Below are positions 1-36,226 of a stretch of DNA of 64,000 nucleotides, piece after piece. Source of the DNA: a virus (Duplodnaviria > Heunggongvirae > Uroviricota > Caudoviricetes); the IMG/VR virus record IMGVR_UViG_3300037424_001372, positions 32,001 to 96,000 of that record; one strand, 5' to 3'. Made by a program: the position numbers and the translations under genes. The notes beneath the pieces were generated by a model. The model was not told where the DNA came from and did not search any database. It was given only the letters and a program-made list of their open reading frames with translations. Position 1 is the stretch's first letter; each line of letters starts with the position of its first letter.

Positions 1-445
<445 letters not shown>

Positions 446-515
446 GTTATTAACTTTTAACAAAAGTAATGTTTGATAATTAATTTATCGAGATTTTTAA
501 AAAATTTATAAATTG

Positions 516-587
516 CACGCCTGAGAGGACTCGAACCCCTAACGTCTGGTTTTGGAGACCAGCATTCTACCATTGAATTACAGACGT
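516..587 (-). tRNA. tRNA-Trp(CCA)
   Basis: Cloverleaf; anticodon arm CTGGT-CTCCAAA-ACCAG; T-loop TTCGAGT. Confidence 0.93.
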
Positions 588-592
588 ATATG

Positions 593-667
593 TAGCACAC
601 ATGGGATTCGAACCCATACCTGTATAGTTTTTGAAACTACTCCCTCTACCCGTTGGGGCACTGTGCT
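593..667 (-). tRNA. tRNA-Leu(CAA), short variable region
   Basis: GTAGT-TTCAAAA-ACTAT; T-arm ATGGG-TTCGAAT-CCCAT; A73. Confidence 0.85.
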
Positions 668-670
668 ATA

Positions 671-1456
671 TTAATTATATTTATTATTCCAATTTTCAAT
701 TCTAATTAATAATTCTTCTAAAGTTATTGAACATCTGAAATTTTTACTAATGTTATCATTATGAATCATTAATCTACAATTTGCAGGATGATTAATTATA
801 TCTGAACTAATACCATTTTCAAAACCAAATTTTATTGAAATCATATGGTCACGACTAATACCATTTAAATTATCGCCTCTATTTTTAGCTTTATACTAAC
901 CATATTTTTCAACTAATGTAAAATCGAATTCATTTGGATAATCAGCTAAATTAAATTTACATTCATTATAATATTTCTGATATTCATTAATATTTTTACT
1001 ATCATAAATTCGTTTACAATCTAAAGAACAAAAAACCCGTTTTCGATTCTTATAATTTAATACAGCATTACAATGTTTACAATAATTAGGCGATAAACCA
1101 TATTTGTACATATTTTCTTTAATATTTAACCTTTTTATTATTGCATCATTAATATTTTTTTTAGCTATATCGCTAAAATTTCTTTTACTATTAACTCTAA
1201 TACTATTATTAAATATTGCAGAACATGATTTTGAACAAAATTTTGCATTTTTTTCTGAAGAATAGAAAATATTATTACATTGTGAACAATATTTAGCATT
1301 TTTTTTCTTAAATTCATTATTACATTTTATCGAACAAAAATGTTTTCTTCCTAACTTTTCAGAACGATTATATTCACTCAATGTTTTTTCAAATTCTTTA
1401 TCACAATTTTCACAAGAAATTATAATTAATTTTCTATTATCTTTCCAACTATTCAT
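671..1456 (-). pseudogene. Zn-finger/HNH-like homing endonuclease with in-frame TAG at 896-898
   Basis: CxxC-rich N-terminus; frame continues past EKYG* as YKAKNRGDNLNGISRDHMISIKFGF...HPANCRLM to TAA at 671. Confidence 0.75.
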
Positions 1457-1529
1457 ATTTATAATTTACTATAAATACGTAAATATTTGAAAAATGTGGA
1501 ATACTTCGAATTCGAACTTGTATTATTAG

Positions 1530-1603
1530 TGGAGTCGATGGAGTATGATTCCACAACCTTCTGCTTGCAAAGCAGATGCTCTATCCATTTGAGCTACGAC
1601 CCC
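1530..1603 (-). tRNA. tRNA-Ala(UGC), atypical T-loop
   Basis: GGGGTCG/CGACTCC acceptor with G3:U70; TCTGC-TTTGCAA-GCAGA; T-loop ATCATAC. Confidence 0.85.
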
Positions 1604-1612
1604 ATGTTATTG

Positions 1613-1699
1613 TATCTTAGGTCGGATTCGAACCGACACGGGCATTCCTGCCCAAGGGATTTTAAGTCCCTCATGTGCTACCAATTTCATCACTAAGAC
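1613..1699 (-). tRNA. tRNA-Leu(UAA), long variable arm
   Basis: AGGGA-CTTAAAA-TCCCT; variable arm GGGCA-GGAA-TGCCC. Confidence 0.92.
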
Positions 1700-1705
1700 A
1701 TTTAG

Positions 1706-1780
1706 TACGAGTGGTGGGAGTCGAACCCACAAATTTCAGTTTCTAAGACTGTTGCCTCTTAACCGTTCGGCTACACTCGC
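1706..1780 (-). tRNA. tRNA-Leu(UAG), short variable region
   Basis: CAGT-CTTAGAA-ACTG; T-arm GTGGG-TTCGACT-CCCAC. Confidence 0.88.
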
Positions 1781-2214
1781 ATTTCTTTTTCAAGTATTGA
1801 ATGACAATTAGAACAAACAATAATTAAATTATTAAATTCATTATTAAAATGATTTCCATCAATATGATGTAGTTCGATTGGTATTTCTTGTCCTAACCAA
1901 GTATCATTACCACATTTTTCACATTTATGTTTTTTATAACCATCCCTAATTAATTTTAATTTTAATTTATGTGAACTAACATTACTTCCATTATAACAAT
2001 ATTCAAGAGCATTTTTTTTATTAAATGTTCTACCTTTATTAAAAGCACTACCTACAAAATGTGTAAATGAAATATTAAAATCAATTGCTCTTTTTTTTAT
2101 ATGAGTTTGTGAACCTGTCATTGGTTTAACTCCCAATATTCTACAAACATCAGCCCATGTTGTCGAACATTTAATAGCATTTTCTAATTGCTCATTAGTA
2201 TATTTATTTCTCAT
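1771..2214 (-). CDS. HNH homing endonuclease
   Basis: CEKC...IELHHIDGNHFNNEFNNLIIVCSNCH; likely start MRNKY at 2214; stop overlaps 5' end of tRNA-Leu(UAG). Confidence 0.85.
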   Translation of the reverse strand: MRNKYTNEQLENAIKCSTTWADVCRILGVKPMTGSQTHIKKRAIDFNISFTHFVGSAFNKGRTFNKKNALEYCYNGSNVSSHKLKLKLIRDGYKKHKCEKCGNDTWLGQEIPIELHHIDGNHFNNEFNNLIIVCSNCHSILEKEMRV

Positions 2215-2297
2215 TAGTATATATGTTTTTATATAAATAGTAATGTGTATACTAAAAAGATTAAATTTCAATATAATTACACAATATTATAATTAAG

Positions 2298-2371
2298 TAC
2301 CCCTAATCAGATTCGAACTGATACATTATACGGTCTTAACGTATTGCCTCTGCCAATTGGACTATAGGGGC
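2298..2371 (-). tRNA. tRNA-Leu(AAG), short variable region
   Basis: ATACG-TTAAGAC-CGTAT; acceptor GCCCCTA/TAGGGGT; A73. Confidence 0.85.
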
Positions 2372-2385
2372 GTATTATAAATTAG

Positions 2386-2475
2386 CATGAGCAGGGGGAT
2401 TCGAACCTAATTGCTATAGTCATCCCATTTTTCCTCTCGGACGAGGAACGTCTTACCACGTTAGACGATGCCCAT
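2386..2475 (-). ncRNA. tRNA-like RNA / pseudo-tRNA with 8-nt anticodon loop and T-stem insertion
   Basis: Acceptor ATGGGCA/TGCTCAT; D-arm GTCT..AGAC; TTCCT-CGTCCGAG-AGGAA; GGG[16 nt]GG-TTCGAAT-CCCCC. Confidence 0.6.
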
Positions 2476-2482
2476 ATTTTAG

Positions 2483-2557
2483 TGCTTTCTATTGGAGTCG
2501 AACCAATGACTTCCACATTGTAAGAGCGACACTCTAAACCAACTGAGTTAAGAAAGC
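2483..2557 (-). tRNA. tRNA-Val(UAC)
   Basis: Loop CTTACAA; acceptor GCTTTCT/AGAAAGC; weak anticodon stem. Confidence 0.8.
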
Positions 2558-2566
2558 AAATAATAG

Positions 2567-2639
2567 TACATCTGATAGGACTCGAACCTATGGTGTCTTG
2601 TTTGTAATACAAGTGCTTTTGCCACTAAGCTACAGATGC
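2567..2639 (-). tRNA. tRNA-Val(UAC)
   Basis: CTTGT-ATTACAA-ACAAG. Confidence 0.88.
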
Positions 2640-2642
2640 ATG

Positions 2643-2706
2643 TAGGGTGGTGTAGTAGCGAACATCACCACCCTAGATAGCCGAAGCTATAACGGTCCTA
2701 AACCGT
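2643..2706 (-). ncRNA. Candidate three-hairpin small RNA inside the tRNA operon
   Basis: ACGGT/ACCGT, ATAGC-TTCG-GCTAT and a perfect 10-bp TAGGGTGGTG/CACCACCCTA stem in tandem. Confidence 0.55.
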
Positions 2707-2709
2707 ATG

Positions 2710-2781
2710 TATTCGGACGGGGAATCGAACCCCGATTTTTGGGATGAAAACCCAACTTCCTTGCCGTTAGAAGACCCGAAC
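2710..2781 (-). tRNA. tRNA-Glu(UUC)
   Basis: TTGGG-TTTTCAT-CCCAA. Confidence 0.9.
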
Positions 2782-2784
2782 ATA

Positions 2785-3558
2785 TTATTTTTCATATCTA
2801 AATTTCCAACTTCTAATTGTATTATCACTGACCTTATATTTATAACCAGCACCTCGATATCCCAATTCACTAATATCTTTAATTAATTGCTCATAAGATG
2901 GTTTAATTTGATTTTTTACAAATCTACCTAACTTCCATCCATTATTTAAATATACATTTAAATCAATTTTATTTATTTTTTTATCTAATTCATTTTTAAA
3001 TACCCAACAAGTACCAAATTGTGAATTATTTTCTTTAATTCCTCTACCACGATGAGATATACTCATTTTATTTTTAGATTCATCAGTATGTTTTTTATTG
3101 GTGAATGTATTATATTTTAATACACCATCAATATGCATTTTTTTAAATCTATTACTTGCTCTTTTTTTATGATTTTCAATAAAATTAGGGTCTAACCAAA
3201 GTTTATTTAAAAAATTTGTTGAACCTTCTCTAATTTTTTTAATAGATTCTTCACACAACCCATTAAGACCACCTTCACCACCCAATTTCAAATTCATACA
3301 CATTGGGTCTTTTAATGTATTTTCATTAACCAATTCCTTTTCAGCCTCTTTTAATAATTTTCGTGATTCAAAATATTTAAGAATTTCAAATATGTGATTT
3401 TCTTTACCATATTTATTTATTGAATACCACAATCTTTTTCCACTTCCATAATAACCATCATTAATATTATTAGTACTATGCATGCCATAATAATAACGAT
3501 TATTTATATTATTAGTTATTTTATATAAATAATTAAATTTTCTTTCACTTCTTGCCTT
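2785..3558 (-). CDS. GIY-YIG (Seg-like) homing endonuclease with NUMOD3-like motif; start codon apparently ATG>AAG
   Basis: In-frame upstream extension KARSERKFNYLYKITNNINNRYYYGMHST...GYYGSG carries the GIY-YIG motif before the first ATG (3483). Confidence 0.8.
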   Translation of the reverse strand, partial: KARSERKFNYLYKITNNINNRYYYGMHSTNNINDGYYGSGKRLWYSINKYGKENHIFEILKYFESRKLLKEAEKELVNENTLKDPMCMNLKLGGEGGLNGLCEESIKKIREGSTNFLNKLWLDPNFIENHKKRASNRFKKMHIDGVLKYNTFTNKKHTDESKNKMSISHRGRGIKENNSQFGTCWVFKNELDKKINKIDLNVYLNNGWKLGRFVKNQIKPSYEQLIKDISELGYRGAGYKYKVSDNTIRSWKFRYEK

Positions 3559-3603
3559 CTTAATATTTTTTATAAATACTAAGATGGTACAAAAAGTTCA
3601 AGG

Positions 3604-3678
3604 TAGTGCCAACGGGGTTCGAACCCGCACATGACCAGTTTGAAGGACTGGTGACTTAACCAGTTTGCCAATAGCACC
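3604..3678 (-). tRNA. tRNA-Glu(UUC) with C33
   Basis: CCAGT-CCTTCAA-ACTGG. Confidence 0.82.
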
Positions 3679-3680
3679 AT

Positions 3681-4277
3681 TTATATTGTTTTTAAATTAA
3701 TGAAAAGTTCATAACCTAAAACATTTAAAATTTTAATTAAATTATTAATAGTAACATTTGATTTATTTAATTCAATTGTTTTTATTGTTCGTAAACTAAC
3801 TTCTGAAATATTAGATAGTTGTTGTTGTGTAATATTTAATATTTTACGTCTTCTTTTTATTAAAGAACCAATATCAGATTCATTTCCAAATTTCATTAAT
3901 GAATTATTTAATTGTTCCATTAATATTTTTTCTCTATATTCTATTTGTTGTTTTAATTTTTCATTATAATTATTCAAATTATTATTATATGAATCAGTAA
4001 TTAAGTAATTAAATAAATCATGATTATCATTTAATAATTTTCCAACCCAATATTTTTCTTTATCAACTAATTGTGTCCAATCAGAAACATTTTCTAATAC
4101 AATAACAGTTGGTGTATAATCATTCATTTTAAGTTCATTAATCCAATCATTTACTAATGGATTGTGTGAATGTGTTAAATGTGATTCAGCTCTTTTAACT
4201 CCGTTAATAGATTTACCAACATATTTAAATTCATCTGTTCTAGGGTCTTTTAAACCATAAATAATATTTTCATTCAT
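3681..4277 (-). CDS. GIY-YIG nuclease fused to a C-terminal XRE/HipB-like HTH
   Basis: IIYGLKDPRTDEFKYVGKS...R; IKRRRKILNITQQQLSNISEVSLRTIKTIE. Confidence 0.8.
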   Translation of the reverse strand: MNENIIYGLKDPRTDEFKYVGKSINGVKRAESHLTHSHNPLVNDWINELKMNDYTPTVIVLENVSDWTQLVDKEKYWVGKLLNDNHDLFNYLITDSYNNNLNNYNEKLKQQIEYREKILMEQLNNSLMKFGNESDIGSLIKRRRKILNITQQQLSNISEVSLRTIKTIELNKSNVTINNLIKILNVLGYELFINLKTI

Positions 4278-4312
4278 AAACATTTTTAACATAAATACTA
4301 ATAATGTTTATT

Positions 4313-4454
4313 AAAAGTGCTATATAATATACGATTTTTTTTTTATTTAAATGACGAACTATTATTTTACTGTTAAAACAGTATTTTAATTTTTATTATA
4401 ACTAAATAATATAATATATTGCACTTTTACTTAAAAATTACTGGTTTAGCAGTA
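4313..4454. promoter_or_regulatory. Candidate operator array
   Basis: Imperfect inverted pair AAAAGTGCTATATAAT (4313) / ATAATATATTGCACTTTT (4411); two TACTG-N6-CAGTA palindromes (4368, 4439). Confidence 0.45.
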
Positions 4455-4461
4455 ATTTTAG

Positions 4462-4534
4462 CACTCCCGATGGGACTCGAACCCACATAACCCGCATAGA
4501 CAGTGCGGTCGGCAACCTTTGCCACCACAGGGGT
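4462..4534 (-). tRNA. tRNA-Asp(GUC)
   Basis: CCGCA-CTGTCTA-TGCGG; G73. Confidence 0.82.
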
Positions 4535-4549
4535 GTTTAATAACTAGGG

Positions 4550-4621
4550 CGGTCTATGCGAGACTCGAACTCGCTTCTCATGGCTGACAACCACAAAGGA
4601 TAACCCATACCCTAATAGACC
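4550..4621 (-). tRNA. tRNA-Asp(GUC)
   Basis: GTGG-TTGTCAG-CCAT; acceptor GGTCTAT/ATAGACC; G73. Confidence 0.87.
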
Positions 4622-4629
4622 AATTTTCC

Positions 4630-4645
4630 CAATATGTCAAAGAAC
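4630..4645 (-). promoter_or_regulatory. boxA-like antitermination element
   Basis: GTTCTTTGACATATTG between terminator and first tRNA; resembles rrn boxA. Confidence 0.65.
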
Positions 4646-4656
4646 GTAACTTCTAT

Positions 4657-4699
4657 AAAAAAAAAGAACCCGACTCGTTTTAGTTAGTCGGGTTCTTTT
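4657..4699 (-). terminator. Intrinsic terminator (attenuator) of tRNA operon 1
   Basis: AAAAGAACCCGACT-10 nt loop-AGTCGGGTTC followed by T9. Confidence 0.88.
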
Positions 4700-4720
4700 A
4701 TTATAAAAGAAAGGAGTGTG

Positions 4721-4831
4721 TTATTTCACATTACCCGACAAAGTATAGTAATCCTCGTCTGCCCATAAAAGAGCATCTACCACTAACATGGCTTCAAGGA
4801 CTAATGATAATATGTCTAGTAATTTTTTCAT
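4721..4831 (-). CDS. Leader peptide 1, 36 aa (MKKLLDILSLVLEAMLVVDALLWADEDYYTLSGNVK)
   Basis: ATG..TAA ORF between promoter and terminator; contains GTCGGGT complementary to terminator 5' arm. Confidence 0.8.
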   Translation of the reverse strand: MKKLLDILSLVLEAMLVVDALLWADEDYYTLSGNVK

Positions 4832-4874
4832 CTTGATTTTATTTAAATCTGTTTGTTTCTATCTAAATACGTAG

Positions 4875-4905
4875 CAAAGTTATAAAATGTTACAACAACT
4901 GCAAA
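4875..4905 (-). promoter_or_regulatory. Bacteroidota-type housekeeping promoter
   Basis: TTTG-19 nt-TAACTTTG matches the -33 TTTG / -7 TAnnTTTG consensus. Confidence 0.75.
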
Positions 4906-4912
4906 CTTTTTT

Positions 4913-5335
4913 TCAAATATTTTTATCTTTTTTTATTGTTGGTGTTATAACTATCTGATAATCATTAATTTCATATGTTTTAAATAATGACATAATGTTC
5001 ATAGTTCCGTATGGATTCATTGAATGTACCATGATATTTGTGGGTACGTCTAATTTATTATCCATACAATAATCAATAAGCCATTTAGCACAATGATAAC
5101 CAGTTTTTTCATATGTTTCATCATTGTAATCGAAATTTTGCTTTTTATAATGTATATCAGCAAGGTCATGGTCAAATGAAATAATATTTGGTAAACCTTT
5201 GCTTTGAATAATATTAATGAATGCAAAATAATTTCGTACTATATGCCATTTTTCATCCATATATATTGGAAGATGCATATACTTGAAAGCATCTTTAGGC
5301 ATTCTGTAATCGTCAAGAAATGGATTATAGCTCAT
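4913..5335 (-). CDS. Cyclic-phosphate-processing receiver-like domain protein
   Basis: FLDDYR, ISFDHDL, TGYHCAKWL and VHSMN motifs. Confidence 0.7.
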   Translation of the reverse strand: MSYNPFLDDYRMPKDAFKYMHLPIYMDEKWHIVRNYFAFINIIQSKGLPNIISFDHDLADIHYKKQNFDYNDETYEKTGYHCAKWLIDYCMDNKLDVPTNIMVHSMNPYGTMNIMSLFKTYEINDYQIVITPTIKKDKNI

Positions 5336-5470
5336 TATTATCTTTTTTAATTATTATTTTATCAACATTTCTACGAACTTTAGAAGTATATTTTTTACCT
5401 CTTTTTTTCATATGTGTACACCATTCACCATTAAGGAACGAATTTTCTTTATGTCCAACTCTTAATTTGC

Positions 5471-5704
5471 TTATAACATGATTTTATTATCTCTAGCAAA
5501 AACTTGAATATAATGTTTCAAATTTTTAATCATTTCTTCTTTAGTGAGATTTTCATCAACATCTTTTAATGATGAATAAATTTCTCGAAGAAATTCAATT
5601 AATTCTGTTTGTTTATTATAATTCAATTCAAATTGTAAATCAATTAATTTTGATTTTAAATCTTCATTTTCTTCTTGAAGTTTATCAATTAATTCTTCCG
5701 ACAT
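5471..5704 (-). CDS. Hypothetical coiled-coil protein
   Basis: 77-aa ORF with heptad-like N-terminus. Confidence 0.6.
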   Translation of the reverse strand: MSEELIDKLQEENEDLKSKLIDLQFELNYNKQTELIEFLREIYSSLKDVDENLTKEEMIKNLKHYIQVFARDNKIML

Positions 5705-5799
5705 GATTTATAATTTTTAGATGATACGTTATTTATTGAAAAATGTTTCAATTATTATTGAATTTTTCTATAAATACTTTAATTAAAAGTAATTGAGTG

Positions 5800-5882
5800 T
5801 TGTCCCCACAGGATTCGAACCTGTAAACCCTAATGGGTGTCTGCTTCAAAGACAGATGCAATAACCATTCTGCCAGAGGACA
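5800..5882 (-). tRNA. tRNA-Gln(UUG) with long variable arm
   Basis: TCTGT-CTTTGAA-GCAGA; variable hairpin ACCC-ATTA-GGGT; U1-A72. Confidence 0.85.
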
Positions 5883-5934
5883 ATTTTAAATTTTGCAATT
5901 TTAATTGAAATATAATCATTATCGCAAAATATAG

Positions 5935-6008
5935 CAGTCTCGGTAGGATTCGAACCTACATTCTTCTGATTCAGAGTCAGGGGCGTTAGCCAATTGCGCT
6001 ACGAGACT
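5935..6008 (-). tRNA. tRNA-Gln(CUG)
   Basis: CTGA-CTCTGAA-TCAG. Confidence 0.88.
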
Positions 6009-6013
6009 ATATA

Positions 6014-6132
6014 CCTTTTATGACTAGACTTTTACTAGCAATTGAGTGTATCAGAACACTACCCTCGTCCCACATTGTTTACAGTTCTCTAAGTGAACCA
6101 CGAGTGACTTCTTATATCATCCACATAAAAGG
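6014..6132 (-). ncRNA. Candidate ~120-nt structured RNA inside tRNA operon 2
   Basis: 9-bp closing stem CCTTTTATG/CATAAAAGG with internal stems CTCGT/ACGAG, GTTC/GAAC, AGTGT/ACACT. Confidence 0.5.
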
Positions 6133-6138
6133 ATTTAG

Positions 6139-6214
6139 GGTGAAAGACGGGACTCGAACCCGCAAATTCCTGATTCACAGTCAGGCAAGTCTAACCAATT
6201 CCTTTACAATCACC
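6139..6214 (-). tRNA. tRNA-His(GUG)
   Basis: CCTGA-CTGTGAA-TCAGG; G-1 and C73. Confidence 0.87.
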
Positions 6215-6224
6215 ATTTAAATAG

Positions 6225-6299
6225 TCGGGATGGCAGGATTCGAACCTGCGAGTTCTCTTGCTTCCAATGCAAGCGGGGTGACCTCTCCCCAACATCCCG
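6225..6299 (-). tRNA. tRNA-Pro(UGG)
   Basis: CGGGATG/CATCCCG; CTTGC-ATTGGAA-GCAAG. Confidence 0.9.
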
Positions 6300-6331
6300 A
6301 AATATTGTCCCTAATATACATATTTGAGACA

Positions 6332-6408
6332 TGGGGTGAACGATGGGACTCGAACCCACAACTATCAGAACCACAATCTGACGTTCTACCAATTGAACTA
6401 CGTCCACC
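6332..6408 (-). tRNA. tRNA-His(GUG), CCA encoded
   Basis: TCAGA-TTGTGGT-TCTGA; G-1, C73, CCA. Confidence 0.93.
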
Positions 6409-6426
6409 ATTTGTTATAAAACCAAC

Positions 6427-6439
6427 TTTTCAAAGAACA
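6427..6439 (-). promoter_or_regulatory. boxA-like antitermination element
   Basis: TGTTCTTTGAAAA. Confidence 0.6.
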
Positions 6440-6447
6440 TTATTTTG

Positions 6448-6543
6448 TCAGGAATGTGGGATTCGAACCCACGGATGACAACGCCTTTGTGTCATCGCTG
6501 GTTTCCAAGACCAGCAGCTTAAACATTACTCGACCGCTTCCTG
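6448..6543 (-). tRNA. tRNA-Pro(UGG) with long variable arm
   Basis: CTGGT-CTTGGAA-ACCAG; 7-bp variable stem GATGACA/TGTCATC; C1-G72, A73. Confidence 0.8.
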
Positions 6544-6553
6544 TTATTTGTTG

Positions 6554-6629
6554 TAGGGATGACGAGGCTCGAACTCGCATAATTCCCGCTTCCAATGCGG
6601 GTCGTCTCCCAATTGACTTCACCACTCTA
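6554..6629 (-). tRNA. tRNA-Pro(UGG), imperfect acceptor stem
   Basis: CCCGC-ATTGGAA-GCGGG; T-arm GCGAG-TTCGAGC-CTCGT. Confidence 0.75.
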
Positions 6630-6638
6630 TATTTTTTG

Positions 6639-6709
6639 TTGTCCTCAGAGGATTCGGACCTCTACGCCAACAGTCAAAGTGTTGTGTGCTACCATTACAC
6701 TAGAGGACA
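6639..6709 (-). tRNA. tRNA-Gln(UUG)
   Basis: TGTCCTC/GAGGACA; CAACA-CTTTGAC-TGTTG. Confidence 0.88.
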
Positions 6710-6711
6710 AT

Positions 6712-6743
6712 AAAAAACCCACTCTTTTCAGAATGGGTTTTTT
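6712..6743 (-). terminator. Intrinsic terminator (attenuator) of tRNA operon 2
   Basis: AAAAAACCCATTC-TGAAAA-GAGTGGGTTTTTT ending 2 nt before tRNA-Gln. Confidence 0.85.
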
Positions 6744-6764
6744 ATTGTTTTTCAAGTGAGGTAT

Positions 6765-6893
6765 TTATCCCCAAGATTCTTCATGATTAACAATAGGATT
6801 CCCATTCACCATCCTTTGTGGATGTTGTGGTTGTTGGGGCTGATGCATTACTACTATTTCCATTGTTTCTTTTTTTAAAAATCGTTTCTTCAT
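6765..6893 (-). CDS. Leader peptide 2, 42 aa (MKKRFLKKETMEIVVMHQPQQPQHPQRMVNGNPIVNHEESWG)
   Basis: ATG..TAA ORF between promoter and terminator; GAATGGG complementary to terminator 5' arm. Confidence 0.85.
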   Translation of the reverse strand: MKKRFLKKETMEIVVMHQPQQPQHPQRMVNGNPIVNHEESWG

Positions 6894-6941
6894 TTTTTAA
6901 GTTTTAGATAAATTTATTACCCTTGACTTATAAATACGATG

Positions 6942-6972
6942 CAAATATACTAATTGCTATCATAATAGCAAA
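6942..6972 (-). promoter_or_regulatory. Bacteroidota-type housekeeping promoter
   Basis: TTTG-19 nt-TATATTTG. Confidence 0.75.
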
Positions 6973-7153
6973 TTTTTTTAAAAAATTATTTATTATTTAA
7001 CACATTGTATTTATCTGGCTCAAATGTTTGTCAAAATCAATATTTTATATTCTTCTTACTGGCATGACAATTATATTACATTCAATAACTAAAAATATTT
7101 TGGAATTATTGTAATAAAGAATAAGAAATTACATTTCAAACTTTTATGTTGAT

Positions 7154-7345
7154 TCATGTATTGATTCTACTTTTTAAATCGTTAATATATTCTTCAGCTT
7201 CTCTAGCTAATCTGGCATCAACATTCCATAGTGTTTCTAACCATGCAGGTTCATTATTTTCAACGAATATTTCTTCATTTATTGTCATACTGCCTACTTT
7301 ATGCATCATTTCAAAAAGCATTTTTTTATTATTAATAGATTTCAT
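7154..7345 (-). CDS. Hypothetical protein, possibly truncated
   Basis: N-terminus NKKMLFEMM resembles SKQRLFEVM of ORF 10430. Confidence 0.5.
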   Translation of the reverse strand: MKSINNKKMLFEMMHKVGSMTINEEIFVENNEPAWLETLWNVDARLAREAEEYINDLKSRINT

Positions 7346-7435
7346 ATTTAATAATTAATTTTTCCAATATTATTTTTATATTAAATTTTGTATTACATTC
7401 TCTATAATTGTTTGGACTTTATTTCTCTACTCGTT

Positions 7436-8023
7436 TTAGCAATATGAAATATTACGAATATTATCTTTCATTTCACTTGTTCTAATTGGAAGGCTTTCAG
7501 ATTCAATATAATTTTGAATAAAATGACGAATGAGCAATGTTTGAATTCTTGATGGAGCATTATCAAATGCAATAAATTTAATTTCATCACCTTCCATGTT
7601 CCACATACTTACAAAAATATCATTCCATTCAAACGAATCGAACCATTTATCTGTTTGAGGTTCATTGTGATAATTACCAACATCTTCTTTACCATCAACA
7701 TTAGCATATATATTATCGCCTTTAAAAAGTATGTTAAATTTTACAGGTTCTTTTGTCGAATCATATAAATAAGCAATATCGATGGCATATTCTAAAGATA
7801 TATTATTGTTATCACCAATTTCCCAATTACCTGAAACATATGATTCTGTTTTTTTTAGAACTTTAACATTATTTTTATTCAAAAGTGAATCACAAATAAA
7901 TTGTTTTTGCAAATCTTCATTTAACAACAATTCATTAGCTTCTTGTTCTTTAAGAAATCTATCGTTACTAAGAAAATCAAATTTAGATACTTCTTCTTTA
8001 ACTATTTTAAGTATGTTTATCAT
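7436..8023 (-). CDS. Hypothetical protein
   Basis: 195-aa ORF with upstream GTATTTAT motif. Confidence 0.7.
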   Translation of the reverse strand: MINILKIVKEEVSKFDFLSNDRFLKEQEANELLLNEDLQKQFICDSLLNKNNVKVLKKTESYVSGNWEIGDNNNISLEYAIDIAYLYDSTKEPVKFNILFKGDNIYANVDGKEDVGNYHNEPQTDKWFDSFEWNDIFVSMWNMEGDEIKFIAFDNAPSRIQTLLIRHFIQNYIESESLPIRTSEMKDNIRNISYC

Positions 8024-8085
8024 AAATTTAAATAAGAATTTCGATCATAAATACTATTAAAAAAGTATTGTAAATAATAATATAA

Positions 8086-8289
8086 TCACCATTTACCTAA
8101 ATAACATACAGATTTAAGACTTCTTACTTTTGCGGGCATAAAGCATCCACACAATGCACATGTATTAGTCTTAGTTAATTTAGGACACTCGACACATATT
8201 GTAATACGTTTTTTTGCAGTTTCCTCTACTTCAGGACTTGGAAATGTGTAATTTTTCCAACCATTATATATTTCATTTAATTTGCTCAT
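8086..8289 (-). CDS. Small Cys-rich Zn-binding protein
   Basis: CVECP...CALCGC...CYLGKW. Confidence 0.7.
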   Translation of the reverse strand: MSKLNEIYNGWKNYTFPSPEVEETAKKRITICVECPKLTKTNTCALCGCFMPAKVRSLKSVCYLGKW

Positions 8290-8476
8290 ATATTTTTAAA
8301 CTTTTTACTTAAGATCGTAAGTCGTCAATTTGTTGACCTGAATCATTAAGAATTAATTTTTGTTGTTCATCATACGGATAATTTTTAATAAAATCAACAT
8401 TAACAGGAAAAAAACTTCCATTTAATATGATTATTATTAGCATTATCGTCATTTTTTTTCAAAAATATTATTCATG

Positions 8477-10357
8477 TTATCTATAAATTATTCTTCCTCC
8501 TTTAGAAACCTTAATATTCTTATTAAGATCATTCCTACTTTCAATAATTGCATTATGCAATATTTCTGATGAATTTAATGCTTTATCATATAGTCTAAGT
8601 TTTTGAATTCCTCCAATAAAATTAGAATCAAAATTTTGTTCAATCAATAAACCAGATTTACTTTCGTCCCGAACTAAAATATCTGATGCAACATATTCAA
8701 AATCTTTAACATAAATAGTACCTCCACTAATAAGTTCATCATCAGTTTCAATCAATAATCCCAAAAATACGTAATTTTGACCAGAATTATCAGGCGTTCT
8801 AAATATATTATTTAATGTAATCCAATTTTGTTCACCAGTCAATATTGAACCAGTTAACAGATAATTATATTCAATATCGTTAACTATGTTAATATCAACA
8901 TCGTCCGAATAAACAATAAGACAGATTTCATTATTTGTTTCAGAATTAAATAAACCATCCACATATATTGAAGTACTGCCAGTATAATCTCTATTACTTA
9001 TCACTGAAATTGGTTGATTAAATTTAATAAAAAATGAATTTCCTGTTGTTCCAGTATATTCAATACTCATAACAGTTAAAGGTATTTCAACATCAGGATT
9101 ACAATTATTATTAGTATGAAATTTAGTATCATTAACACTTAATAACAAACCATCAATAGTAGTATCACCAGTTAATGGTATGTAACAATCTGTTGGAATT
9201 GGATTAACATTGACAGAAAAATAATTGTTAACATATAAATCATCTTGACCATTATAAATAACATATGTTTGATAATCATAGTGATAAGAATGTTTTAAAC
9301 CAAAACTACCACCGCCCCAGCTAATTGAAAACGGTTCACCGATTTGTTTTTCTCTATCATTATTAAATAATTTAAAATAAAATTCTGGAAATTCTTTTAC
9401 CATCCAAACTGCTCTACCATTAACATAGAATATTAATTTACCTGTTCTACGTTCAGCACATTCTAATAATGATTTATCTGATATAATTTCATCAGGGGTA
9501 TATGTAATATTGATGAGAGTCCAACCAGTTAAAGGTATTACATTTATTGATGAACAATTGGTTATTATAATGCCGTTATCATCGATATATTTATAACCAA
9601 TTTTTTTATCTTCAGTAATTTCAAAAGCAATTACATTATTTTTTATATTGGTAATTGGTGTTGCTTCTTTATATTGAGTTTTATACATGTTTGATTCAGG
9701 AGAACTAAATCCTAAATTTAATGATTCATAAGCCTCTAAAGCATTTAAATAATTATTTTCGCTAGTGTCAACACCACCAGAAATTTCATTATTGATAATA
9801 AATGTTTCACCACTAAAATATGTATTATACTTATCTTCAGAACGAGCACCCATCATATAAAATATACCTTGTGATTCAGGAACTAAGTTTATAAGAGTTT
9901 CGATAGTAATACCATTATTATATCTCGAAGGAAATAATTCATAATCATATTTATCGAGTTTAAAAAATCCTTGTAAATATCCACCATTTAAATCAAAATA
10001 ATTACCAGTATTACCCGTAGTTACAGCAGACATTGATAAATATTCTGTAGTGGCAGTTACGCCACTATAATCATAAATTGTTGGGTTAATAACATTATTA
10101 TATCCAATTCGATACATTGAAAATAAATTATCTTTTGGGGTCAATGTAATTCCACTCCACATAATATTAGTCCTACCATTATCAAATTCAGTTAAACCAA
10201 AATCATGTAAATTAATATTGTCTGTAATAGCTCCCGACCATTTAGTTAAACTTAACGCTGTTAAACCAGTATTTAAATCCCATGATTTTAAATTTGTTAG
10301 GTCGATCTGTATTGCTAAATTTTGTGTGATAATATCATTTAAACATTCTAAACTCAT
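8477..10357 (-). CDS. Probable virion structural protein with LamG/ConA-like beta domain
   Basis: WTLINITY, LIFYVNG, FIGGIQKLRLYDKALNSSEI; T/G-rich. Confidence 0.6.
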   Translation of the reverse strand: MSLECLNDIITQNLAIQIDLTNLKSWDLNTGLTALSLTKWSGAITDNINLHDFGLTEFDNGRTNIMWSGITLTPKDNLFSMYRIGYNNVINPTIYDYSGVTATTEYLSMSAVTTGNTGNYFDLNGGYLQGFFKLDKYDYELFPSRYNNGITIETLINLVPESQGIFYMMGARSEDKYNTYFSGETFIINNEISGGVDTSENNYLNALEAYESLNLGFSSPESNMYKTQYKEATPITNIKNNVIAFEITEDKKIGYKYIDDNGIIITNCSSINVIPLTGWTLINITYTPDEIISDKSLLECAERRTGKLIFYVNGRAVWMVKEFPEFYFKLFNNDREKQIGEPFSISWGGGSFGLKHSYHYDYQTYVIYNGQDDLYVNNYFSVNVNPIPTDCYIPLTGDTTIDGLLLSVNDTKFHTNNNCNPDVEIPLTVMSIEYTGTTGNSFFIKFNQPISVISNRDYTGSTSIYVDGLFNSETNNEICLIVYSDDVDINIVNDIEYNYLLTGSILTGEQNWITLNNIFRTPDNSGQNYVFLGLLIETDDELISGGTIYVKDFEYVASDILVRDESKSGLLIEQNFDSNFIGGIQKLRLYDKALNSSEILHNAIIESRNDLNKNIKVSKGGRIIYR

Positions 10358-34537: not shown

Positions 34538-36226
34538 ATGGGATTTTTAATGGAAAGTGCCGAAGTTGGTAATATTGGATTAAAACAACTTCGTGAACAA
34601 AGAGAAATCACTACAAACCGTTGGGAAAAGATTGGTTTGTTAGAAGGTTTGGAAGGTAATGTTAGAGAAAACTGTGCTCAATTATTTGAGAATCAGTTGA
34701 CACATATGATTAACGAATCGTCAGATTCATCTAATAGCGGTCAATTTGAAACAGTTGCGTTTCCTGTAATCCGTAGGGTTTTTGCCAAATTATTGGCAAA
34801 TGATATTGTATCTGTACAAGCACTTAACTTACCTATTGGTAAATTATATTTTATTAACCCTAAAACTTCTGTAAGGGTTGATTCAACTACTGCTCCTTGG
34901 GCTGAACAAGCTAACGGTTATCATACTTCACCTGACGGTGCTTATGGTAATGCTGCTGATAAAGTTGCCAATCAAAAAACTATGTTCGAATCTCGTTCAT
35001 TATATGATGCATTTTATGCTACTAAATATGATGACGAAGGAACTTCATTGTTTGATAATTCAAAAGGTGATATTACTACAGTAACTGCCAGTACCACTGC
35101 TTCAACATATGTACTTGGTACTGATAAATATGTCACATTAAATGTTGGCGGTATTTATAGTACTTCTGAAGGTAAATTAGTTGGTCCTACAGGTGTCCCA
35201 ATGGATACTGAATCGTTTCTTGCCGGCTTAAAGGTTGTTGCAAATATCGATTTAACTGCTCCATCTCCCTACGCTGCTGAAGGTATTACTGCTGGTGAAA
35301 ATATTCCTTGTAATGTAAAGTATCAAAAATATGGTCAAGCCATTGTTAGTAAAGAAGGTGTTTTAACAATTCTTGCTGACTTAACTTATGCTGGTGCTGA
35401 TGGTTATCAGCCATTATCAGGTACAACCGGACTTACTTTTACCGTAACATATAAAACTTATTCAGACCTTGAAGAAGATTCAAGAATGGCTGAAGTAACG
35501 TTCCAATTAGATCAAGTTACTGTTTCAGTAGAAACTCGTAAAATGCGTGCTATGTGGACACCAGAATTAGCGCAAGATGTTTCTGCATTCCATAACATAG
35601 ATGCCGAAGCAGAATTAACTGCTTTATTGTCAGAACAAATGGCTGCTGAAATTGACCGTGAAATTCTTCGTGACCTTCGTAAAGGTGCTGCTTGGACTGC
35701 TCGTTGGGATTATAATGGTTTGCGTAAAGGAACTAACACTTATTATGGTGTGCAGAAAGACTGGAATCAGACTTTGGTAACTAAAATTAACCAAATCTCT
35801 GCTCAAATCCACAAAGCCACTCTTCGTGGTGGTGCATCTTGGATTGTAGTTTCTCCTGAAGTAAGTGCCGTATTTGATGATCTCGAATATTTCCATGTAT
35901 CAAATGCTGCTCCTGAACAAGATAAATATAACATGGGTATTGAGAAAATCGGTACTTTAAGTGGTCGTTATCTTGTATATCGTGACCCATATTCACCGGC
36001 AAACACGGTTCTTATTGGCCATAAAGGTACTAGCATCCTTGAGACCGGTTACATATATGCACCATTCGTGCCAATGCAATTAACTCCTGTAATGTATAAC
36101 CCATTTGATTTCACACCTATTCGTGGTATCATGACCAGATACGCTAAGAAAATGGTGCTTAACCGTTACTATGGACGTATTTATTGCGATGGTCTCCAAA
36201 CTTTTGGTATTGGTGATTTACAATAA
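34538..36226 (+). CDS. Major capsid protein (T4 gp23-like)
   Basis: WTPELAQDV.AFH.IDAEAEL...EIDREIL; YIYAPFVPM; RGIMTRY. Confidence 0.96.
   Translation: MGFLMESAEVGNIGLKQLREQREITTNRWEKIGLLEGLEGNVRENCAQLFENQLTHMINESSDSSNSGQFETVAFPVIRRVFAKLLANDIVSVQALNLPIGKLYFINPKTSVRVDSTTAPWAEQANGYHTSPDGAYGNAADKVANQKTMFESRSLYDAFYATKYDDEGTSLFDNSKGDITTVTASTTASTYVLGTDKYVTLNVGGIYSTSEGKLVGPTGVPMDTESFLAGLKVVANIDLTAPSPYAAEGITAGENIPCNVKYQKYGQAIVSKEGVLTILADLTYAGADGYQPLSGTTGLTFTVTYKTYSDLEEDSRMAEVTFQLDQVTVSVETRKMRAMWTPELAQDVSAFHNIDAEAELTALLSEQMAAEIDREILRDLRKGAAWTARWDYNGLRKGTNTYYGVQKDWNQTLVTKINQISAQIHKATLRGGASWIVVSPEVSAVFDDLEYFHVSNAAPEQDKYNMGIEKIGTLSGRYLVYRDPYSPANTVLIGHKGTSILETGYIYAPFVPMQLTPVMYNPFDFTPIRGIMTRYAKKMVLNRYYGRIYCDGLQTFGIGDLQ

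Follow-up and report, generated by a model that had tools for sequence, protein, structure and literature searches.

The DNA analyzed here, referred to as the window, comprises 64,000 nucleotides (bases 32001–96000 of one 324,744-bp contig with 27.6% G+C, IMG/VR record IMGVR_UViG_3300037424_001372) and belongs to a giant phage whose T4-type capsid protein is encoded at 34538–36226 (Pfam Gp23 match, E 2.6e-72). Positions refer to the window unless genome positions are indicated. Nearly all tRNA genes of the phage are minus-strand genes located at 15.4–38.7 kb of the genome, and no tRNA-Lys is present in the set of this genome. Our subject is operon 1, a group of 12 minus-strand tRNA genes (515–4622) on which ARAGORN and Rfam concur, together with the leader region preceding it, which contains a promoter-like motif, a short open reading frame (ORF) and a terminator. 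A search of sequencing runs found the sequence of this phage in a sediment metagenome, which may be its source. Among the GenBank phages no close relative was found, as the capsid identity is at most about 40%, and a DNA search of these phages with region 4400–7200 gave scattered tRNA matches only and no relative; a match to a Cellulophaga phage was set aside, its gene context being unrelated. The leader region and the tRNA genes are organized as follows, in the direction of transcription and all on the minus strand.

4875–4905, minus: putative promoter-like motif of the Bacteroidota type (TTTG, 19-nt spacer, TAnnTTTG), from a regular-expression scan
4832–4874, minus: A-rich 5′ untranslated leader that spans the 43 nt between the promoter-like motif and the ATG and lacks a Shine–Dalgarno sequence
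4721–4831, minus: leader ORF with ATG start, 36 codons and stop (stop at 4721–4723); the regulatory run comprises codons 4–27
4814–4820, minus: segment 1, ACTAGAC here and ACTCGAC in most relatives, pairs with segment 2
4760–4775, minus: small conserved hairpin around the single Trp codon, from covariation
4733–4739, minus: segment 2, GTCGGGT, antiterminator strand, ends 9 nt before the stop
4709–4717, minus: motif between stop and terminator, ACTCCTTTC here and CCTCCTTTC in most relatives
4663–4698, minus: intrinsic terminator hairpin of 36 nt with 13-bp arms and a 10-nt loop, −18.6 kcal/mol
4687–4693 and 4668–4674, minus: segment 3 (ACCCGAC, 5′ arm of the terminator) and segment 4
4657–4662, minus: T-run of the terminator, from the sequence
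4627–4645, minus: 19-nt box holding TTGACA between the terminator and the first tRNA, nearly invariant in the aligned phages
4461–4622, minus: two tRNA-Asp (GTC), ARAGORN and Rfam, as for all tRNAs below
3602–3678 and 2709–2781, minus: two tRNA-Glu (TTC) with an endonuclease-like ORF in between
2482–2639, minus: two tRNA-Val (TAC)
2297–2371, 1705–1780 and 1612–1699, minus: tRNA-Leu with anticodons AAG, TAG and TAA
1529–1603, minus: tRNA-Ala (TGC)
592–667 and 515–587, minus: tRNA-Leu (CAA) and tRNA-Trp (CCA), the final genes of the array

The scans made between 4663 and 515, that is from the terminator of operon 1 to the tRNA-Trp, revealed neither a terminator nor a promoter motif, and for this reason the 12 tRNAs and the endonuclease-like ORFs among them plausibly form one transcription unit of about 4.1 kb. 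The promoter-like motif and its flanks also align with the regions before the leaders of operons 2 and 3 of the same genome and before the leaders of related phages, and a search of IMG/VR with the exact pattern gave 0 matches. A simple consensus scan returned sigma-70-like sites at chance level (47 versus 46.6); it missed all leader terminators, and in operon 1 the loop of 10 nt exceeds the limit of 8 set by the tool. Shine–Dalgarno sequences are rarely used in Bacteroidota.

By analyzing the composition of the leader ORF we could show that it is enriched for the six amino acids which the tRNAs of operon 1 carry. Of the 24 residues at positions 4–27, 21 are Leu, Val, Asp, Glu, Ala or Trp, the exceptions being one each of Ile, Ser and Met, and this set makes up 30.6% of the residues in the long ORFs of the genome. 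A window with 21 of 24 such residues is reached by one of the 1188 small ATG ORFs of the genome, which is the leader itself, and by 0 of the 65,847 windows in ORFs of 150 amino acids or more. The enrichment is real and far beyond chance. An earlier note on this stretch had already placed these residues and the 12 tRNAs at the coordinates found here; its caveat that the match is weak was too modest, as the enrichment test shows the leader to be unique in the genome. Its further claim of a match down to the isoacceptor has to be abandoned, because at this level the agreement is no better than chance (P about 0.8 for the Leu codons). The Leu codons of the leader (five TTA, two CTT, one CTA and one TTG) are the four common ones in this AT-rich genome, and by the codon usage of the genome nine Leu codons would all differ from CTC and CTG with a probability of 0.81. 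Likewise, 15 leader codons have an exactly cognate downstream anticodon, with about 14.4 expected when summed from the codon-usage table.

The leader region is conserved in other phages. A search with the capsid protein identified 128 related IMG/VR contigs with 71–89% identity, several of them complete genomes of 320–365 kb, and the tRNA regions of five complete relative genomes were compared first. Four classes of leaders recur across these five genomes, each ahead of matching tRNAs, and no single genome of the five shows all four in the stretches compared: class 1, to which the leader of operon 1 belongs, with Asp, Glu, Val, Leu, Ala and Trp; a His/Gln/Pro class; class 3 with Thr, Cys, Asn, Ile, Ser, Gly and Arg; and a Lys/Tyr class, whose leader has a Tyr triplet and Lys pairs and to whose unit the Tyr tRNAs of the relatives belong. 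A covariance model built from five class-1 units found the unit in 22 further related phage records with E below 1e-8; homologues exist in at least 25 related uncultured giant phages, and 25 units were aligned. Two relatives with only 3 and 6 scattered tRNAs, one complete and one 91% complete, gave no significant match to the model. The leader peptide keeps its length and, in part, its sequence. Substitutions stay inside the amino acid set defined by the tRNAs, and third codon positions vary.

In the genome studied here, the order of promoter-like motif, small ORF starting with Met-Lys, terminator and tRNAs occurs three times, with clearly paralogous promoter regions. The leader of operon 2 (ORF 6765–6893) has ten consecutive His, Gln or Pro codons and stands ahead of Gln, Pro and His tRNAs (5799–6709). 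The third unit lies outside the window (genome 19625–19950, minus); its leader (genome 19702–19836) has many Thr, Asn, Ile, Ser, Cys and Gly codons and is followed by tRNAs for Thr, Cys, Asn, Pro, Met, Ile, Ser and Gly. When 29 leader–array pairs from nine phages were tested as a system, the true assignment of leaders to arrays ranked first of all permutations in nine of nine phages. In 130 of 131 cases an amino acid with a tRNA in an array was also present in the leader of that array, and all seven arrays with a tRNA-Trp have a Trp codon in their leader. In G050, the most distant relative examined (71% capsid identity), the tRNA-Trp is located in the class-3 array; there the class-1 leader is devoid of the Trp codon that is nearly invariant elsewhere, and one Trp codon is present in the class-3 leader. 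The phages are related and not independent samples, so that the P values of these comparisons are inflated, which counts against the interpretation given below; the relocation of Trp in G050 is the kind of event that does count despite kinship.

The pairing segments show a similar picture. As the earlier note had pointed out, GTCGGGT (segment 2), located 9 nt before the stop, is complementary to the terminator arm ACCCGAC (segment 3). In most aligned relatives, the leader ends with GTC GGG TAA and segment 2 directly abuts the stop codon. Their complementarity between segments 2 and 3 amounts to 8–12 bp because the bases preceding GTCGGG change from phage to phage together with those that follow CCCGAC, and in some phages this pairing enters the terminator loop, beyond what likeness to the 3′ arm would give. 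Segment 1 is found at codons 5–6 and contains CTCGAC in most phages. We counted pairs in 24 distinct sequences and used slid pairings and 500 shuffles as controls; helices 1:2 and 3:4 and the Trp-codon hairpin were part of the alignment model, so that their counts lean towards structure, whereas helix 2:3 was not part of it. For the antiterminator helix 2:3, 80.4% of the cells are paired (91.0% in the 7-bp core and 54.4% in the 3-bp extension) and four pairs have double changes; one to two of the 500 shuffles reach the observed value and the slid controls reach at most 49.6%. None of the 500 shuffles reaches the values of the other three structures: helix 1:2 is paired to 92.8% with double changes in five pairs (slid controls at most 55.3%), the terminator helix 3:4 to 94.0% with double changes in nine pairs (at most 65.4%), and the Trp-codon hairpin to 85.7% with double changes in five of its six pairs (at most 55.7%). 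This covariation supports a four-segment attenuator with the alternative helices 1:2, 2:3 and 3:4.

The free leader of this phage has an unusually stable fold (z = −5.8); at minimum energy the terminator is formed, and segments 1 and 2 are paired in spite of one broken pair. Stalling was modeled by masking the 5′ part to mimic the stalled ribosome and by omitting segment 4, which would not yet have been made. When the stall was placed at codon 20, helix 2:3 is present in the minimum-energy fold of 16 of 16 phages including this one, and with a stall at codon 10 in that of most of the 16.

Given the observed parts, their conservation, the covariation of the helices and the codon-to-cargo match, we consider it likely that region 4657–4905 is a ribosome-mediated attenuator of the trp/ilv type which controls the unit of 12 tRNAs, and the phage probably makes these tRNAs only when the codons of the leader are read slowly. 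We infer that the ORF is translated and that its translation is coupled to the RNA polymerase, and the direction of the response and its natural trigger would be as follows. Transcription would start at the promoter-like motif, and a ribosome would translate the 36-codon leader, in which codons 4–27 almost all specify Leu, Val, Asp, Glu, Ala or Trp. When these are decoded quickly, the ribosome would arrive at the stop codon and cover segment 2, the 3:4 terminator would form and the tRNA genes would remain silent. Slow decoding of any of these codons would stall the ribosome upstream, for example when the matching charged tRNAs are scarce due to a mismatch in codon usage, host shut-off or cleavage of host tRNAs. 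With segment 1 occupied or unpaired, segment 2 could then pair with segment 3, no terminator would form and the tRNAs would be made. The new tRNAs would relieve the stall, that is, they would exert negative feedback. The hairpin that encloses the Trp codon possibly acts as a pause signal. The proposal of the earlier note, namely a multivalent attenuator whose codons inventory its tRNAs and whose antiterminator strand is masked by a ribosome at the stop, is strongly supported by the conserved leaders, the covariation and the class-matched arrays.

Several points weigh against this interpretation. Coupling of transcription and translation in the infected host is assumed, and the only full match in the sequencing-run search was the sediment metagenome, with no RNA run listed. 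A ribosome stalled late could free segment 1 to pair again with segment 2. Amino acid starvation would also give read-through, a situation in which extra tRNA would not help. The match between leader and tRNAs can be demonstrated by amino acid and not by codon or isoacceptor. The one exception seen among the 131 cases above belongs to the class-3 array of this genome, where a tRNA-Pro is present and the leader has no Pro, and the same leader contains Arg codons without a tRNA-Arg. The 7-nt complement taken alone is only mildly unusual, as 3.8% of shuffles or of random 111-nt stretches match it. The conserved box after the terminator and the anti-Shine–Dalgarno-like motif before it have no role in the attenuator model.

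Other points concern this phage in particular. Compared with the relatives, its leader lacks one base in the tail, which shifts the frame just before GTCGGG and places the stop 9 nt further on; its regulatory run is five codons longer than that of the relatives. Segment 1 has one mismatch, by which its pairing with segment 2 is weakened, and helix 2:3 is only 7 bp long. In addition, when the stall is placed at codon 10, codons 16–18 of this phage pair with the 5′ arm of the terminator in the minimum-energy fold, and helix 2:3 does not form. Thus, all parts are present, but judged from its sequence the switch looks weaker than in the relatives. With the usual footprint, a ribosome at the stop codon of this phage still covers segment 2.

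The same arrangement could be explained in other ways. We regard it as unlikely that the attenuator senses the general translation capacity or the availability of ribosomes, with specific codons playing no part and the amino acid match being secondary. The structural parts would work alike in such a device, which would also agree with the lack of a better-than-chance match at the isoacceptor level and with leader residues that have no tRNA in their own array. It leaves unexplained, however, that each class of leaders has a different, non-overlapping set of amino acids matching its own arrays and that Trp has followed tRNA-Trp to another leader. Quite improbable, too, is a functional small protein, for example a hydrophobic or acidic micropeptide, whose unit is ended by the hairpin, the tRNAs being supplied by constitutive read-through or by a second promoter, for which the TTGACA box would be a candidate. 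This box is conserved between the terminator and the tRNA-Asp, and the conservation of the peptide in length and partly in sequence would fit a functional product. What is kept in the peptide, however, is membership in the set and not chemistry, since Asp, Ala and Val interchange, and its stop codon overlaps a segment that covaries with the arm of the terminator. In the other classes of this genome and of the five relatives, the terminator ends about 6–20 nt before the first tRNA in most units, so that there is no room for a promoter; in operon 1 the −10 element of the TTGACA box would be positioned inside the tRNA-Asp and is not conserved. For the same reason the box is unlikely to be a promoter. 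It is specific to this leader class and has a single copy in the genome.

An RNA-only switch of the T-box type that binds uncharged tRNA, with the ORF being irrelevant, would sense the state of tRNA through a terminator/antiterminator pair as well. We consider it very improbable: neither a T-box nor any other Rfam family matches 4623–4905 at E up to 0.1, third-position variation combined with conserved amino acid classes indicates coding constraint, and one specifier codon could not report six amino acids. The idea that the ORF arose by accident ahead of an ordinary terminator, the genome being AT-rich, draws on the fact that Leu, Val, Asp, Glu and Ala are common residues and on the modest figure for the 7-nt complement given above; it is contradicted by the enrichment, found nowhere else in the genome, and excluded by the conservation of the ORF, its frame and the pairing segments in at least 25 phages with 71–89% capsid-protein identity.

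Returning to the ribosome-mediated attenuator, a broader role can be envisaged, which we put forward tentatively and hold to be somewhat less than an even chance. The phage family might run a multi-channel sensor of decoding capacity, with four channels in most relatives, in which a replacement block is switched on for whichever host tRNAs are limiting, including those lost to host anticodon nucleases. Three or four leaders would each inventory their own block, and together they would cover almost the whole code. If true, the sensor would be an inducible counter-defence and at the same time a self-correcting supply of tRNA.

Leader-peptide attenuation is a known kind of control; new would be that tRNA genes are its cargo. 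Multivalent leaders are established in enterobacteria, where those of ilvGMEDA (Leu/Val/Ile) and thr (Thr/Ile) resemble the phage unit in that a short leader specifies several amino acids, the 5′ arm of the terminator pairs with an upstream segment and this segment is masked by a ribosome at the stop. In contrast to these, the phage unit has tRNAs and not biosynthetic enzymes as cargo, addresses six amino acids at once, is found in a phage with Bacteroidota-type promoter signals and without Shine–Dalgarno sequence, and is one of three or four parallel channels that jointly cover nearly all amino acids. The four-segment logic of 1:2, 2:3 and 3:4 is shared with trpL, hisL, leuL and pheL. The Rfam leader families Trp_leader, His_leader, Leu_leader and Thr_leader have no match in 4623–4905 at E up to 0.1, and Thr_leader matches at the terminator of operon 2 only, with 29.9 bits and thus below its gathering score of 55. 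By its cargo the nearest system is the pheST attenuator of Escherichia coli, which has the Phe-rich leader pheM and controls a component of the decoding apparatus and not a biosynthetic pathway. The phage unit, too, would be a case of leader attenuation of a decoding component, but pheST is cellular and concerns a synthetase and one amino acid, whereas the tRNA product of the phage unit would feed straight back on the signal. T-box riboswitches likewise sense the charging of tRNA and choose between terminator and antiterminator; they differ in that they bind the tRNA directly without translation, one tRNA each. The T-box model of Rfam has no match in 1–9000 at E up to 0.1.

Full-text literature searches, whose coverage leaves out most subscription journals, turned up no paper in which tRNA genes are controlled by a leader peptide. 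For decades it has been debated for what purpose phages possess tRNA genes and in what way they are used, and compensation of codon usage is among the proposals. More recently it has been proposed that phage tRNA genes serve to escape host defences that target tRNAs (PMC10264068). The leader switch would mean that in at least one large phage family tRNAs are produced when needed and the ribosome serves as the sensor, and classical attenuation would be extended from amino acid supply to decoding capacity. If the switch holds, it is also a small natural device from which the decoding speed of selected codons can be read, and the four-channel layout predicts which block of tRNAs answers which shortage.

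The leader of this phage contains a Tyr-Tyr pair, from which the earlier note had predicted a tRNA-Tyr further downstream. Such a gene does exist to the left of position 1 (genome 27971–28056, about 4.46 kb beyond the tRNA-Trp), but the pair does not predict it. The aligned relatives end with V-G-stop without the pair, which stems from the shorter tail, that is, from the frame shift seen only in this phage. Moreover, two further terminator-like hairpins precede the tRNA-Tyr, one of them directly, and upstream of it lie a promoter homologous to the Lys/Tyr promoters of the relatives and a decayed copy of the leader in which no ORF is left. The region (genome 28050–28480, minus) has the appearance of a decayed Lys/Tyr unit of which only the tRNA-Tyr is left behind a hairpin, and the decayed leader fits with the genome having no tRNA-Lys.

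Some further observations concern the leader classes and the other units. The amino acids are divided among the classes roughly by the first letter of their codons: mostly GNN in class 1, with Leu and Trp in addition; CAN and CCN in class 2; mostly ANN in class 3, with Cys, Gly and Phe in addition; and AAR and TAY in class 4. In the leader of the third unit a 9-nt segment is complementary to the A-run and 5′ arm of the terminator, and seven of its nine Ser codons are AGY; the sole tRNA-Ser of this unit has the anticodon GCT. Operon 2 contains an additional tRNA (6554–6626) which was found by Rfam and missed by ARAGORN. Its 84-nt gene at 5799–5882 is called Phe by ARAGORN and could, by eye, also have an anticodon loop of the Gln type. 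Another tRNA at genome 31329–31411 (minus) was found by Rfam (40.3 bits) and missed by ARAGORN; judged by eye, its anticodon is CCA and its variable arm is long.

Within the array of operon 1, four endonuclease-like ORFs are found among the tRNAs (671–4292, minus), which would be co-transcribed with them if the array is one unit. The Pfam matches GIY-YIG and NUMOD3 stay below the cut-offs and HTH_3 exceeds its own, and an HNH motif is seen by eye in ORF 1771–2271. The endonuclease-like frame at 671–1456 (minus) contains an in-frame TAG, and a frame for an AAA_28-type ATPase (2–463, minus) is open across an in-frame TGA, with the Pfam match spanning this TGA read as Trp. Class-3 arrays of relatives are closed by a tRNA with a CTA anticodon, the amber suppressor type; none was seen in this genome. 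Two spacers of the array (2372–2481 and 2640–2708, minus) are called by neither tRNA tool: by eye, the former resembles a tRNA in which the anticodon loop has 8 nt and a long insertion is present, and the latter has two strong hairpins. In the corresponding arrays of relatives, ARAGORN gives odd tRNAs with anticodons of 2 or 4 bases.

As to the motif at 4709–4717 (ACTCCTTTC), we assume a likeness to the 3′ end of the 16S rRNA. The gene just upstream of the operon-1 promoter (4913–5335, minus) encodes a cREC_REC domain ("cyclic-phosphate processing receiver", Pfam E 2.5e-19), a family which we take to be tied to RNA-repair systems and which would suit a conflict over tRNAs.

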